Assembly: GCF_006345805.1 (NCBI RefSeq)
Contig: NC_042999.1
Location: 71,238,001-71,302,000 of the forward strand
Direction of reading: 5' to 3'
Source: Octopus sinensis
Taxonomy: Eukaryota
Length of the DNA stretch: 64,000 nt
The translations under genes were made by a program, and so were the position numbers. Below the pieces are notes generated by a model. It ran no database searches. It was not told the DNA's origin and saw only the letters and a program-made list of their open reading frames with translations. Numbering within the stretch: the first letter of the stretch is position 1; the number at the start of each line of letters is the position of its first letter. Of the stretch, positions 7,926 through 61,658 are shown one piece after another.

Positions 7926-8199
7926 TAGTTATTATTGTAAGGTTTATAGCATTTCAAATAGTCATAACAGCAAAATCCCTTCTTAATTTTTTCTTACAAA
8001 AATTATAGCTGTGTATATAAAAAAAAAATTCATTCAATAAATAATGTTTTTACTTTAACAATATAGAATAAATTGTGAGTTTTGCAATTACCGAATTAAA
8101 ACTTGAAACGAAAACATTGAAATAGAGAGTGAGAGACTTTGCAAATGAAAACGGAATACACCACTGTGAATGCAACGAATATTTAAATTTGTGAAAATT

Positions 8200-8648: not shown

Positions 8649-10247
8649 AGGGAGAGACTGAGACAGACAGACTATCTGAAGACTAGGGAAATATCCAATT
8701 TAATTGTTTTTCTTATTTTACTCTTAGTTGGAAAAGTCTAAAAGACGGAAAACTGTACTAAAGTGTACTTCATGATAAAAAATATTCTAGCATTTTCTAC
8801 TTTGTCTTATTTTACTTATACATATCAACTCGTGTGTTACTTTTCTACCCTCTACATACATACATACATACATACATACATACATACATACATACATACA
8901 AGTGGTTGTTTAGGTTTAAAGATTCGGGAGCTTAAGTTCCTTGCGCCAATAGTCTAAGTCTGTTTTAAAGGCACTGTTGTCCTAAAAGGGAGTAAGTGTT
9001 CTGTGATGTATACAATAGCGGCATATTTGCGTTTGATTTTGCCGGAACGTATAAAAAATAAATAAGCAGATTATCATTTATTTACGTACTTTATTCGTGA
9101 AAGCAGTCTCCAACATGGCCATAGTCCAATGACTAAAACCAATGAATTAAAATATACTTTTAGACACATGTCTATGTACGTTTTAGACTGCGTATGTAGT
9201 TATTCTTTAATATTTGTTTTCAGTTTTCTCTTAACGCGGCCTGATATAAATTGTTGTATCTATATAGAAAGTGTTTCCCGAAATAAATGATTGTATCTAT
9301 ACAGAAAATTGCTGCCAGATATATAAGTGCCAAGCTAAAATAATATAATTTATTATACAAGATTATACTTAAGCATACAGTCTAAAGAATTTTGCTAATA
9401 TATTCTATGTTCACAGTAAAACAGTATTGGTAACAGACCAGCTTCAGATTGTTTTTACTACTTATTACAGTGTTGACGATACTAATGGTGCCTTGATTCC
9501 TGCATACACATAACCAGACACACTCATACACACGTGACACATATACATAAAATGCATACAATTACAAACACACATATGTATGTGTATGTCTGTAAGCATG
9601 TGCATCCTTATATATACATATATATATATATATGTCAAATCATGTGTAGGTATGAATTGATGCGCTATCACTGACCCCAATATAATCACTGCAGCAACGA
9701 ACTAAATCCTTAGTACATTGGGAGTTTCTACTAAGGCTCTCGTAGAAATAACTGTTAAATACACTGCACACATTACTGTATGAAATAAAAAAAAATTGTA
9801 CCTATACGTCACATAAACAAGCGTGACTTACCACTGGAATGTTTGTCATCATAGGTCTGCTCGCTAAGTCCTGCCATGGGGCTTAAACAACAACAACAGC
9901 AACAAAAAACGGGTATACATTATGCATTATAAATGTTCGTTACTCATAGAATAGATGACCGCGTTATCAAAACAGCAAACAGAATACTCATTACACTCAA
10001 TCATAAATTAGCTTGATAATATATTGTAAATACAGAAAGAATAAATCTCTCTTCAACAATCGCAAACATACAAATCACTGAATACACTGCAAATGACCAA
10101 TGTACATTAGACATACTTGTGCTAACAAGAAAATTATAAAGGCTATGACGCTAATTGTTTCATCGGGCGTACATTTTACGTTCTTGCTTATCAAGTGATT
10201 TTTGCATTTACAAGGAGTCATTACTCAATCATAAAATGCAATACACA

Positions 10248-18280: not shown

Positions 18281-19583
18281 TAACCGGGATAAGTCAGTGG
18301 GTTTGAAGCTTGGCTCCTGGAGAAAGAAATCCATGCAGTTCAACAGCGTCTCCAGCGTGGGACACTGGACCGACGGACCGGTTAAATTGCTCGGAGTCTG
18401 GCTCAGTTCAGACTGAGGTGGCGAATGCGTACATCGCATCAGTCATCAACTGACCGTCGTACCTTGCCCCGAACCTACCATCACCAAACTAGAACGCATA
18501 CTCTTCCGCTTTTTGTGGAAAGGAGCATTTCGATGGTAAGGCGATCCATTTGCTGTCATGGATCAAGCAGAGACCGAGGATAGGTAAATGCTACTGCAAG
18601 TGTTATTATGCTCTCGAGCAGGTTTTCCGCGTGGGACCAAACTTGTGCAACTCTACTCCCACAAAAGCGTTCTATAGAAGATTAGTGGAGGGGAGGTGTG
18701 ACGACGTTTTGGGGGAGAATCTGGGCGTCGACTAGGAACACCTGACCCGCATCTTCAGGACCATGTTCGGGCCGGGACCTATGGACAATCATCAGAGATC
18801 CCTGACCTGGCAGTGCTATCAGGGAGCATTGCCCGTTCGGGATAAGCTCTACAGGGACGGTTCGAGAAACACCGGACCGACCTTCCTGAGATACGGTCAG
18901 AGAGACGAAACCGTTCTGCACGCACTCGTGCAATGTCCAAACATTTCAGATCTGTGGGCTTATGTCAAACGGCTGCTGTCACGTGTGGAATGAATTTGAT
19001 TGTCGGCCGAGTCTATCGTGAATATTGCCCCGCCACCTTCCTGTAGGAAGGTAGTTTTCATTGTACTGGTAGCTATGGTGAAAGAATGTGTGTGGTGTAC
19101 TCGTTTGAAAGGTTTAGAAACAAATACTTTCCTTTCTGGCCAATTTCTCATCAACTTTTTCAAGTACCACTTGAAAAGGAAGGTGGGAATAGAGGGGGAA
19201 GCTTTGTCCCACGCAAGTTTCCGTAAAAGGTGGTTGAACGTAGCAAAGATGGTACGCATGAATGACAAAACCACTTTGAGCATCATTCTGTAAATCTAAA
19301 AGAGCGAGAGAGAAAGAGAGAGAGAGAGAGAGAGGAGGGAGAAGGGAGAGAGCGCTTTGCTCTCATGTGTTCTCTCCCTTTTTTTTTTTCCATGGATAAA
19401 TCTAATCTTTATTACATTTTTACTTCCCCTTTTGGGAACTCTATTACAGACGGAACGTTGTTACTTTGCTGTTTACACGTACCAAACTTTTTCGATCCTT
19501 TTGATCTTTTTTTTTTCTCTTTCGAAAAGAAAAGTTCTACATTGTATTTTTCCCTCTGTGTTCGACCCTACGTGGCTAATAAA
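18281..19583 (+). mobile_element. 5'-truncated L1/Tx1-type LINE, older copy B
   Basis: NRDKSVGLKLGSW..VKLLGVW, LPVRDKL, ETVLHALVQCP, ECVWCTR (L1/Tx1 ORF2 C-terminus, zf-RVT); ends gtggctaataaa before (TC)n/TATC. Confidence 0.85.
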
Positions 19584-19588
19584 TCTCT

Positions 19589-23260: not shown

Positions 23261-23350
<90 letters not shown>
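23259..23350. repeat. (TATC)n microsatellite
   Basis: Direct reading. Confidence 0.95.
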
Positions 23351-23723
23351 AGAAATTGAAAACAGAGGGTTACCCACTTGCAAACAAATGTGGTAACATA
23401 TAACAATATTAACCAAGGTTACCGCGGTCTTTTTCGTAGGCTTTTCTTCCCACGGATAAACCTTACTTGCTTTCCCCTTTACACCATACATCATAACACT
23501 GTGATACAAGATCCCTATTGATCGTTTTTTTCCCTCTTCCCCTTTTTTTAAATTTTATTTTTTGTTCTTTTTTCCTTCTTTTACGATCCCTTTTGATCGA
23601 AAACCTACGCCACCTTTTTTTTTGTTTCTTTTGTTTTTTGTTTTTTTTCATCCCCCAAAAGAAAAGCTCTACCTTGTAACTTGTCCCATCTGTGTGCAGC
23701 TCTGTGTGGCCAATAAAGAAACT
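23351..23723 (+). mobile_element. 3' UTR-only copy C of the Tx1-type LINE, inside (TATC)n
   Basis: Nearly identical to 37766-38247 apart from a shorter T-rich tract; ends ggccaataaagaaact. Confidence 0.9.
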
Positions 23724-36090: not shown

Positions 36091-36680
36091 TTACTCCTCA
36101 TGATTTTTTTGCACGCTCTCTTGGAGCGTGTTCATTTATTTTAATCTTTGTTAAATTTTCTTGTATTTTTCTCTGTCTTTAGCAATCCCTCACTCTAGCT
36201 CGTTCCCCATCTCCCCCACATTATCGCAAGAAAACGAAGCACCGCTGCTAATCATGGCCAGAAGGGGAGTTCGTGAAATTCATATTTGTCTTTTGGGACC
36301 ACAGACTAAGTTAAAACCCTTCAGTGTTTTCGGAGCTGTGTTATTTAACCATACTTATTCTTTCTGGACTTACAGAAAAGATAACCATATTATATTTGTC
36401 ATTTGAAAAAGAATCATTTTAAAAAGAATGATACTGATCGAAATGATAATGATACATCTTTTGACGGCTGAGAAAAGTCTCGTGCTGAAAAACATGAAAA
36501 TTCTGTGAATTATCTAAACAAAAGTACTTCTTACTATGTACGTCCAAGAACTTCATGAACGCCATAATTTCTCCACTTACTAGGAACTGCTCTTATGTAG
36601 TCTAATGAATGAGTCATGATTCAGACATGAAATTATAGCAATAATATATCAGCCCAGATAATGACTATATCAATATCAAT

Positions 36681-36701
36681 ATCTATCTATCTATCTATCT
36701 A

Positions 36702-36775
<74 letters not shown>
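36681..36775. repeat. (TATC)n microsatellite
   Basis: Direct reading. Confidence 0.95.
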
Positions 36776-38601
<1,826 letters not shown>

Positions 38602-48490: not shown

Positions 48491-48897
48491 GGACAGGAGA
48501 GGCTGTGTGGTAAGCAGCTTGCTTACCAACCACATGGTTCCGGGTTCAGTCCCACTGCGTGGCACCTTGGGCAAGTGTTATCTACTATAGCCTCGGACCT
48601 ACCAAAGCCTTGTGAGTGGATTTGGTAGACGGAAACTGAAAGAAGCCCGTCCTATATATGTATATATATGTATGTGTATGTGCATGTTTGCGTGTCTACG
48701 TTTGTCCCCCCAACATAGCTTGACAACCGATGCTGGTGTGTTTACGACCCCGTAACTTAGCGGTTCGGCAAAAGAAACCGATAGAATAAGTACTAGGCTT
48801 ACACAGAATAAGTCATGGGGTCGATTTGCTCGACTAAAGTCGTTGCTCCAGCATGGCCGCAGTCAAATGACTAAAACAAATAAAAGAATAAAAGAAT
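48491..48897 (+). mobile_element. Full-length tRNA-derived SINE with CORE-like segment, internal microsatellite and LINE-like tail
   Basis: A box ggctgtgtggtaag, B box gggttcagtccc, accttgggcaagtg, tail ctccagcatggccgcagtcaaatgactaaaacaaataaaagaataaaagaa. Confidence 0.9.
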
Positions 48898-48929
48898 ATG
48901 TATATACATATATATATATATATATATAT

Positions 48930-51380: not shown

Positions 51381-51489
51381 TATATATGTATATGTATATA
51401 TATATGTACATATATATATGTACATATATATATGTACATATATATGTATGTACATATATATATATTTATATATATATTTATATATATAT

Positions 51490-52238
51490 TCTTTTATTTG
51501 TTTCAGTCATTTGACTGCGGCCATGCTGTAGCACCACTTTTAGTCGAACAAATCGACTCCAGGACTTATTCTTTGTAAGCATAGTACTTATTCTTATTTC
51601 TTTATTGCCCACAAAGGGCTAAACATAGAGCGGACAAAGAAGGACAGACAAAGGAATTAAGTCGATTACATCGATCCCAGTGCGTAACTGGTACTTAATT
51701 TATCGAGCCCGAAAGGATGAAAGGCAAAGTCGACCTCGGCGGAATTTGAACTCAGAATGTAACGGCAGACGAAATACCTGTTTCTTTACTACCCACAAGG
51801 GGCTAAACACAGAGAGGACAAAGAAGGACAGACAAAGGAATTAAGTCGATTACATCGATCCCAGTGCGTAACTGGTACTTAATTTATCGACTCCGAAAGG
51901 ATGAAAGGCAAAGTCGACCTCGGCGGAATTTGAACTCAAAACGTAACGGCAGACGAAATATCGCTAAGCATTTCGCCCGGCGTGCTTATTCTTTGTCCTT
52001 TTTGGTCGAACCGCTAGGTTACGGGGACGTGTACACACCAACATCGGTTGTCAAGCGATGGTTGGGGGAAACTAACACAGTCATACAAACATACACACAC
52101 ACACACTCACACACACATACATACGGCAGGCTTCTTTCAGTTTCCATCTACCAAACTCATTCCCAAGTCTTTGGTCGGCCCAAGGTGCCACTAAGTGGGA
52201 CTGAAGCCGGAACGATGTGGTTGGTAAGCAAGCTACTT
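51490..52238 (-). mobile_element. tRNA-derived SINE (family of 48491-48897), interrupted by a nested SINE and cut within its head
   Basis: Tail at 51490-51595, body and head at 51985-52238. Confidence 0.88.
51596..51984 (-). mobile_element. Nin/Deu-type SINE with ~183-bp tandem duplication and Tx1-like tail
   Basis: gagttcaaattcc B box and gtcgactttgcctttcatcctttcg..tcgataaattaagtacca, present twice; 9-bp TSD cttattctt at 51587-51595 and 51985-51993. Confidence 0.85.
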
Positions 52239-53088
52239 TATTTCATATGTATTTGCCATGAAGGCATTGCATCTTTATATTCCCACCCTCCTCTTTCATT
52301 CTCTCAAAAAGCTCGGAGAGCCTCTCCGTTTGTATTACGATATTTTCACACGATACAGCGGCTAGCCGCGAACTTTTTTGCTGCCTCATGCAGCTGGTTT
52401 AATTCTTGAATTATTTCGACCGACATATTCGTTCTAAATAAATTTATACACAATTTAATCCCAGAAAAAGGGAAACCTATCATTTTTTTACTTATTTTTC
52501 CCTCTCAACATGGACAACAGTTCAAATCCCACCCCCGCCGGGGGGCGAGACGTAACAACAAAGCCTAAAACGTTCGAAATTAATTAATTTTTGTTTTCTA
52601 CACAATAATAGAAATACAGATTTCTCCAAAACGGGAAACCTATAATATTTTTTTCTCACGAGAACAACAGTTCAAATCTCATCCCTGCTAGGGCGGTTAC
52701 CACAATAGAGCCTACAACGGCTGAAATTTAATTTTTCACACAATAATAAATTGATTATCCCCAAAAAGGGAAACCTATAATATTTTTTCCTCTTAATGAG
52801 GATAACAGTTCAAATCCCACCCCCGCTGGGTGGTGGTGGTGGGTTGGGGGGCACGACAATAAAGCCTACAACGGCCTTAATAAGTTTAATATCTCAACAA
52901 TTCACTACTGCAAAAATGGCTTTACACAAACATTTACTTTCTCCCGTCACCGGGAAAAAGCACAAAAATTTTCTAAGTTTCAAAGTTCGACAATGTTCAA
53001 CAGTTCGAAAATATTCAACAATAAACATTCAACAATTCCAACATAAAAATTATCCAACGTTCAACAAAACACATCTATCCACGAGACA
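52239..53088 (-). mobile_element. Non-coding insert with three ~130-160-bp internal repeats, probably a Tx1-type 3' UTR
   Basis: gggaaacctat..aacagttcaaatc..agccta units near 52470, 52632 and 52768; shares a 30-nt end with 53105-53148. Confidence 0.55.
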
Positions 53089-53104
53089 GGTAAGCAAGCT
53101 ACTT

Positions 53105-53910
53105 TATTTCATATGTATTTGCCATGAAGTATTTGCCATGAAGGCATTACAAAGAGGGGACGAATAAGGACAACAAACATAAAAGGGTGAAGTAGCTGTA
53201 GCGATTAAATATTTACAATTTAAAAATACAATAATTTAAGAATATATTTATAATTTTCGACTTAAGCGTTGCTCATTACAAATGAAATTTGTAATGGCTT
53301 CTCTGAAGGATAGGCATCCGACCACTAGGGTAGACCCCTTGCTTTTTCTTTCCTGTTTTTGGCTTCTACTTACCTGGTGCCAAACACCCCCAGCTTCCGC
53401 AGAAAAAGCAAACCTTCCTTTCCCTGTTAAGGGAAGGAGGCGGCACAATCTCGACGATAGATTCAGCTGATAGCTGCACTCTTTCCATCGATGACAACAG
53501 TTGCTCTGCGAAAACTATCAGTCTCGTTAATTCCGGACATTCCACAAATGCGTGCAAGACGGTTTCCCTGTCCTGCCCGCACCTCAGATATGTCGGCGAG
53601 ACAGCACTTCCGTGCCTTGACAGTTTAAAAGGAACAGGTAACGCCGCACGGATGCACTATGAAGCCAAGGATTTCTTGTAATTGTCCAGATACCCCAGCC
53701 CGAAAGTTCCCCGGAACACGTTGATTAACTGATTTTCATCGTAGCCCAGGGTCTCCCCAAGGCGTCTTCGGACTTAACCTCCACTAACTCACTATAGAAA
53801 TCCGCGGTGGAACTCCTAGTGCCGGCATTGCCCGCCCAGGAGAGTAGCTGAAATGCCTGGCGGCACTCCAATTGCCGTTCTCCCAGCCTAGGTCTCTGCT
53901 TGATCCAATT
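53105..53910 (-). mobile_element. Second-family L1/Tx1-type LINE 3' fragment
   Basis: ETVLHAFVECPELTRLIVFAEQLLSSMERVQLSAESIVEIVPPP is homologous to copies A/B; minus-strand end gaaataaa. Confidence 0.8.
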
Positions 53911-53997
53911 ACCAATGTCCGTTAAGGACGTTAATTGCAGAAGGTAGAACCGAACATGCGGTGACCATTATTCTTCCATCAGAAAGTGCGGTGACCA

Positions 53998-60016: not shown

Positions 60017-60075
60017 AAGCTCTACCTTGTAACTTGTCCATCTGTGTGCAGCCCTGAGTGGCCAATAAAGAAACT
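60017..60075 (+). mobile_element. ~60-bp 3' tip of the Tx1-type LINE
   Basis: aagctctaccttgtaacttgtccatctgtgtgcagccctgagtggccaataaagaaact matches 38188-38247. Confidence 0.85.
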
Positions 60076-61419: not shown

Positions 61420-61568
61420 CTTTTGTTAGTTTTTTTTTTTTACACGATCCCTTTTGACCGGAATTTTTTCCTCCCATTTTTTCTATTTCCTTCCTTTTTC
61501 TTTCGAAAAGAAAAGCTCTACATTGTATTTTGTCCCTTCTGTGTTCGGCCCTGTGTGGCTAATAAAGA
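61420..61568 (+). mobile_element. 3' UTR fragment of the Tx1-type LINE followed by (TATC)n
   Basis: acgatcccttttga..aaaagaaaagctctacattgta..ccctgtgtggctaataaaga then (TATC)n to ~61764. Confidence 0.85.

Positions 61569-61658
<90 letters not shown>

Follow-up and report, generated by a model that had tools for sequence, protein, structure and literature searches.

A SINE of Octopus sinensis with a tRNA-like head shares a structured 3' tail with Tx1-like LINEs, one lineage of which inserts into the SINE

The SINE inserted in the window (the whole 64,000-nucleotide stretch analysed, positions 71,238,001 to 71,302,000 of the forward strand of Octopus sinensis contig NC_042999.1, assembly GCF_006345805.1) ends in a 3' tail of ~45 bases, with a predicted small hairpin and an A-rich end, that it shares with Tx1-like LINEs. 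The enzyme that copied it was likely, with a probability of about 0.63, the reverse transcriptase encoded by lineage B, a LINE nested at a fixed base of the SINE, rather than that of family A, the LINE present in the window. The shared tail, the insertion site of lineage B, the target duplications and the SINE copies joined to one another at the same base were all directly observed. The tail and target system is probably that of a stringent SINE-LINE pair, with another LINE than the one first proposed: of the stringent SINE-Tx1 partnership put forward in the first-pass annotation, the family-level tail, the hairpin and the Tx1-like LINE were retained, and the window's family A as the partner was not.

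The SINE end and the end of the 5'-truncated family A LINE, which lacks ~80 bp near 37573, are identical at 34/42 positions without gaps, as originally counted, and the internal tail of the same SINE matches the LINE end at 33/42 positions (Table 1). The insertion is a dimer, overlooked in the first reading, whose two body and tail units have a 184-bp period and are 95% alike. The 9-bp target-site duplication and the host SINE on both flanks can be seen in the sequence as described; we take this host to be a CORE/OR-type SINE. The TATTCTATC site reported for the target was found in the intact host copy, but it is the reading of the strand opposite to the SINE's sense; in family A the (TATC)n lies on the sense strand.

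Table 1 Features of the SINE insertion, its host and the A-group LINE ends in the window.
Feature	Position	Strand	Comment
5'-truncated Tx1-like LINE, family A	36776..38246	+	ORF2 C-terminus with zf-RVT, pyrimidine-rich 3' UTR, tail
Family A tail	38205..38246	+	3-bp top stem, 6-nt loop, one register off the SINE hairpin
(TATC)n target microsatellite of family A	38248..38601; 5' side 36680-36775	+	
Further family A tail in (TATC)n	23681..23722	+	41/42
More family A tails	60033-60074, 61530-61571; 19547-19588		the last is older
Five A-group ends of the window	18415-19588, 23350-23722, 36776-38246, 60017-60074, 61421-61571		
Whole SINE insertion	51596..51984	-	5'-truncated tRNA-like head, then two body+tail units
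SINE 3' tail, CAA subtype	51596..51637	-	predicted bulged hairpin, 4-bp top stem, 5-nt loop, then A-rich end
First SINE tail, internal to the dimer, TAG subtype	51780..51821	-	one A links to the head position where B inserts
9-bp target-site duplication, 3' copy	51587..51595	-	site begins AGAA, start coupled to CAA tail subtype
9-bp target-site duplication, 5' copy	51985..51993	-	
Host SINE, another family, split by the insertion	51454..52238	-	matches 48512-48929
Empty target site in the intact host SINE copy	48780..48788	+	

The SINE head contains A-box- and B-box-like words ~55 nt apart; ARAGORN detected no tRNA in the window, and a full SINE copy gave no Rfam tRNA match. The label 'Nin/Deu-type' initially attached to the SINE found no confirmation. 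The central Nin (Deu) domain, of ~70-120 bp, is defined in the available parts of PMC4824008 and PMC4758252, and it was not recognised by eye against the Nin sequences accessible in the PMC4758252 supplement. Compared by eye with these Nin sequences and with the Deu blocks given in PMC4824008, the SINE body shares two short words only, in a different order, and lacks the Nin/Deu 3' block; the supplements searched do not contain an 11-base word taken from the body. A remote and truncated relation to the domain may exist. Octopus SINEs are labelled tRNA-Core and tRNA-Deu in the accessible part of PMC8967140.

The tail is a family feature and is not private to the window copy, confinement to which was ruled out by a scan of sampled genome sequence and by genome counts of exact tails. 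The scan, with four tail references at a threshold of 27/42 over 600 kb (60 evenly spaced 10-kb stretches), gave 49 matches on the real strands (46 SINE-type tails and 3 LINE-type tails; 44 of the 49 at 34/42 or above) against 3 in the reversed 600 kb used as a chance control, all exactly at 27/42. The whole genome contains 119,526 exact SINE-type tails (0 in the control) and 8,070 exact family A-type tails. A gapped tail profile run over the same 600 kb returned 56 matches: 45 SINE, 3 family A and 8 'other', the latter being three truncated SINE ends, two of an ORF1-only Tx1-like element, one Tx1-like ORF2 end (L109), one resembling by eye an (ATT)n-targeting family and one weak match (L063) with no classifiable coding sequence. 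A non-Tx1 LINE end was searched for and none matched in the 600-kb sample, which represents 0.02% of the genome and lacks lineage B itself, so that a rare partner could escape. The tail is, as had been claimed, shared between the SINE and L1/Tx1-type LINEs: in fetched DNA, Tx1-like families with as little as ~45% ORF2 identity carry related tails, as do ORF1-only derivatives, and the sequences that follow the LINE tails vary ((TATC)n, (ATT)n, (TC)n).

The expectation of a conserved stem-loop with covariation was borne out. In a loop-fitted alignment of 16 hand-picked related representatives, anchored on the loop, 58/64 top-stem cells pair, compared with 46.9 +/- 2.5 in shuffles (0/5000 reach 58), and both-sided changes occur at pairs 1-3 of the four top-stem pairs. 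The same bulged hairpin is predicted for the last 48-50 nt of the SINE, A and B, with single-sequence folding z-scores that are not significant; since the hairpins of A and B are offset by one register, RNAalifold gave no consensus fold when the tails were aligned without gaps. In 40 SINE units, the variants frequent at paired positions are of the G-C/G-U and U-A/U-G kinds, the pairing being kept as wobbles. A 65-nt fold at z = -2.75 was discarded, as it corresponds to a different, copy-specific pairing and not to the shared hairpin. The clearest compensatory change seen was in a tandem ORF1-only element (L090), whose tails near 8134-8178 and 9958-10000 (minus strand) have G-C for C-G in the top stem.

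Both LINEs were classified from their proteins and their targets. The ORF2 of A and B contains PF03372, PF00078 and PF13966, which place both in the L1/Tx1 group only; the ORF1 of B matches PF00098 above the cut-off, and that of A has no Pfam match, a CX2CX4HX4C pattern being visible in its translation. The ESM Atlas returned the Pfam families again for the LINE proteins and nothing further. Target-sequence specificity is present in both: A lands in (TATC)n, and B at one SINE base (126/140 exact tails and 30/30 best copies run into the SINE body there). In a reverse transcriptase tree of 39 stretches, built without curated Tx1L, Keno, Kibi or vertebrate L1 sequences, A and B belong to a group (98/95) that also includes turtle and lancelet proteins and a coral protein whose name, 'Transposon TX1', is an automatic annotation; this group stands apart from the Riccia and Closterium proteins. 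On architecture and targeting, as read from sequence, A and B are classed as Tx1-like.

Full-length family A is ~6 kb long and has an intact 1,145-aa ORF2 with AP endonuclease, reverse transcriptase and zf-RVT; identity among its copies ranges from 70 to 99%, Argonauta hians provides the nearest protein relative with a name (68%), and the best solved structure for its ORF2 is human L1 ORF2p (196 bits, vs 77 for R2). Insertion of A into (TATC)n is frequent: with the tail pattern shortened by two bases, 5,076 matches continue into (TATC)3, corresponding to ~60% of the A tails, and among the first 30 A tails examined, all of which carry the A-family 3' UTR, 15 run strictly into (TATC)n and most of the others into a degenerate form. 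The duplication length of A is not measurable inside the microsatellite. A-group ends cluster locally, with five in the 64-kb window vs 3 in the 600-kb samples, and one full-length copy (L051, 1500-1670 and 7700-7900) has an apparent, unusually long flanking duplication of ~190 bp of degenerate (TATC)n.

That family A is the stringent partner and passed its target preference on to the SINE is highly improbable. The 34/42 identity speaks for it, as do the abundance of A with its intact full-length ORF2 and the range of its copy identities, which overlaps the age of the SINE; against it are the other hairpin register and last base, a lower tail identity, a site motif on the opposite strand, and the absence of the SINE body after any of 30 sampled A tails, which largely refute A as sole partner. 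Nor does the SINE show a TATC preference, contrary to the suggested inheritance: only 98 of the 119,526 SINE tails (0.08%) lie in sense (TATC)n, ~3 times the background (0.026% of positions), and 95 lie in the opposite-strand (TATC)n. These orientation counts (98 vs 95) and A's 5,076 rule out inheritance of the TATC target. The wider idea of an inherited target preference fails for TATC and family A and survives with lineage B, a Tx1-like lineage that lands inside the SINE.

Family B, absent from the window, was found via divergent ORF2 pieces in fetched DNA. It is 5.3 kb long (ORF1 of 520 aa with a CCHC knuckle, ORF2 of 1,134 aa) and shares the hairpin register and the last bases of the SINE. 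Nineteen of the 20 fully fetched B copies are full-length and start after a SINE head. The flanking SINE is 85.5% alike pairwise, vs 99.4% for the LINE (18/20 loci), indicating independent hosts, and the target duplication is ~16 bp, with the variable first base the same on both sides in 19/19 full-length copies (printed junctions). Host diversity and matching duplications together indicate that B inserts site-specifically into pre-existing, independent SINE copies, and they rule out B as a single chimeric SINE-LINE unit. In four sequencing runs, one contig spans the B tail into the SINE body for more than 31 bases and three reach 12-13 bases past the tail. Full-length copies are far commoner in family B (19/20) than in family A (2/19 readable), both sets having been picked by a 3' query, and pairing with the host head in family B may aid completion of the 5' junction.

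Older B copies (78-88% amino-acid identity) extend the lineage. Ten of their ends were fetched: six lie at the same SINE base, two before other sequence, one is a SINE-type end after a deletion and one is unreadable; the older B tail type has 11 exact copies in the genome. Behind two older B-like copies (L385, L389) lies one and the same non-SINE sequence, which starts like the SINE site and is perhaps the 5' end of another stacked element. In the reverse transcriptase tree, B and older B group with a further family, E, in a 100/99 clade whose sister is the A group, and the B/E clade, not A, has the SINE's 4-bp stem with a 5-nt loop. When 130 SINE tails are compared with the LINE tails across their final 34 nt, the mean identity is 26.4 for the window A, 28.8 for young B, and 30.0 and 31.4 for older B, but one A-like copy reaches 29.3/34, above young B; tail identity by itself therefore gives no clean separation of the lineages, and hairpin register and target weigh more.

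The presence of the tail on distant Tx1-like families outside the SINE (E, D and the A group) places its putative origin in the LINE. It also argues against the reading that the tail is either a relic or a SINE sequence which B, living inside SINEs, acquired through template switching or conversion, with the SINE now moved by an unrelated LINE (RTE, CR1 or Dong), as do the B-like duplication length and +1 offset of the SINE and the failure of any other LINE end to match in 600 kb. This reading, which we consider very unlikely, draws on two older B copies (the L391, L390 pair), one with a tail almost equal to the commonest SINE tail and the other a deletion joined to a SINE-type end, and on the recent activity of CR1, RTE and Dong families in an octopus described in the available part of PMC13282606. 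Conversion from a SINE could account for the near-perfect older B tail.

The SINE shares its insertion signature with B: the same SINE head base, the same +1 offset and a similar duplication length. Of the 119,526 SINE tails, 25,990 (22%) are joined to the insertion base of B, the internal junction of the window dimer among them. Among 72 SINE elements with a head, 45 have a duplication of at least 7 bp (7-22 bp in 41 of them, mostly 14-17), which starts one base after the tail in 22/45; the other 27/72 have none, many because the next sequence is another SINE unit. In its choice of site the SINE is much less strict than B (~90% site-specific): in a non-random sample of 130 tails (all fetched loci minus 30 chosen for TATC), 89 are non-nested, and the bases that follow them are non-random (A, then G/A/T, G/A, T/A, A). 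The junctions between SINEs differ from those of B, the linker being A in 29/29 of the former and T in the latter, and the first base G in 30/31 against 15 G : 17 C at B junctions, with SINE heads carrying both G and C. Consequently, the 25,990 junctions cannot be counted as that many fresh homing events, and most multimer junctions would have been copied from multimeric masters or be RNA-templated, rather than arising by independent homing. The 40 SINE units sampled are 94.2% identical to their majority sequence, none above 97.8%, and family B is rare (140 exact tails) and young (99.4%), younger than the sampled SINEs; its rarity and youth indicate that the living B family did not make most SINE copies, and point to an older partner.

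In solo copies, tail subtype and landing site are coupled: CAA tails landed at 13 AGAA : 1 GGTA sites, and TAA/TAG tails at 1 : 23 (p = 3.5e-8). This coupling and the variety of the solo SINE sites are among the points in favour of a SINE that took its tail from a B/E-clade ancestor and was then served by many Tx1-like families reading the hairpin, A included, its own read-through tag, more than the partner, setting the site. Such a SINE is an unlikely alternative, of less weight than copying by lineage B. Every Tx1-like family seen keeps a related tail, A copies are over 50 times as numerous as those of B, and the 98 SINE tails in A's phase exceed the (TATC)n background; however, had the A endonuclease worked much, the (TATC)n share should far exceed 0.08%, the opposite orientation is equally frequent (95), and the hairpin register is of B/E type.

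Copying by lineage B, the preferred reading, would proceed as follows. A Pol III transcript from the tRNA-like head would be bound at its tail hairpin by the B-lineage ORF2 protein, the B-lineage endonuclease would nick sites resembling C|(G/A/T)(G/A)(T/A)A, and reverse transcription would begin about one base after the tail. A few read-through bases (GGTA or AGAA) carried over from an earlier nested landing would likely anneal to the target at the nick, and this would account for the coupling of tail subtype and landing site; the coupling could equally stem from two partners active in separate periods. A second nick ~15 bp away would yield the duplication. The dimer in the window, whose AGAA target lies within a SINE of a different family, would be a product of the B-lineage route, with an older, larger B-like family assumed as the past partner. 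A closed loop, in which a Tx1-like LINE reads the 3' hairpin, multiplies the hairpin-bearing SINE and lands in it, with read-through bases as heritable site guides, is a tentative extension to which we give somewhat less than even credence.

The closest known system is SINEU/Tx1-Mar of crocodilians, in which mobilisation by Tx1 was inferred from shared targets (Kojima 2015, PMC4494074, in the sections available). As here, a SINE is proposed to be moved by a target-specific Tx1, with a common site in another repeat and tandem SINE insertions; SINEU, however, has snRNA heads, poly(A) tails and a Mariner target, whereas the octopus SINE has a tRNA-like head and a structured shared tail and is itself the target, and no LINE with the SINEU-1 3' end had been found according to these sections. 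Stringent pairs in the L1 clade are ZmSINE2/3 with LINE1-1_ZM and SINEX-3_CR with L1-1_CR (accessible parts of Ohshima 2012, PMC3472496, and Ohshima 2013, PMC3747384), and in these too the LINE is of the L1 group and its conserved 3' hairpin of ~45 nt recurs in the SINEs; unlike A and B, the partner L1s are plant or algal and without target specificity. Such pairs are rare: Table 1 of PMC3747384 lists L1-clade pairs as 3/58, from plants and an alga; none involves a Tx1 partner, and no pair of the L1 group comes from an animal.

The target-specific Tx1 elements named in the accessible text of PMC4494074 are Tx1L (in Tx1D), Keno (U2) and Kibi/Koshi (microsatellites). Family A resembles Kibi/Koshi in its microsatellite target, (TATC)n not being among the targets named there, and B resembles Tx1L in using one site in another transposon, although the target of B, unlike that of Tx1L, is a SINE carrying B's own tail. 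The landing of SINE into SINE can be compared with the Alu-into-Alu hotspot (Levy et al., PMC2836564, available part); L1 itself is not confined to that hotspot and reads poly(A) (PMC3472496, available part), whereas here the LINE is ~90% confined to the SINE site. Thirteen recently active L1-Tx1 families were reported in an octopus, with no SINE partner named in the accessible part of PMC13282606, and the term 'Tx1' does not occur in PMC5786205. A search of the literature returned no Tx1-tailed SINE and no SINE-targeting Tx1; the SINE may already bear a name, and its partner an annotation, in repeat databases.

Whether the L1/Tx1 ancestor read a specific tail or poly(A) is posed as an open question in the accessible parts of PMC3472496 and PMC3747384, which record stringency in the L1 group from plants and algae only. 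The question of ancestral stringency becomes testable with a Tx1-like group from an animal that combines a covarying tail and intact young copies with two kinds of passenger, a SINE and ORF1-only elements. Its members have a common RNA handle and differing DNA targets (TATC, ATT, TC, the SINE head, LINE 5' ends), a natural series that separates RNA recognition from endonuclease specificity, and copying by lineage B would explain the origin and the multimeric structure of a repeat with more than 100,000 tail copies in the genome. Should the closed loop be true, the parasite's parasite would double as a safe haven for the LINE, and the L1 group of animals would include a lineage that recognises its RNA stringently, its related families having kept a common RNA handle while their DNA targets diverged.

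Several further families were seen in the fetched DNA. Family E (L393-L402, L403) is 70% identical to B in the C-terminal third, includes copies with intact ORF2, has the SINE-type hairpin and builds chains by landing just where LINE-like elements begin, in front of their 5' ends. Family D (L353-L382, e.g. L354, L364, L374) is older, ORF1-only and HAL1-like, also with the SINE-type hairpin, and is often found in tandem, followed by a fixed ~55-bp sequence. Tx1-like families ending in (ATT)n or (TC)n (L234-L236, L109, L085, L068) suggest a series of microsatellite-specific families within one genome. In the window itself, positions 52239-53976 (minus strand) contain a decayed Tx1-like ORF2 end (~50% to A) and a ~850-bp non-coding element with a common tail, both stacked at one site of the host SINE head and each followed by the same host bases; this is possibly a second Tx1-like lineage targeting a second SINE family.
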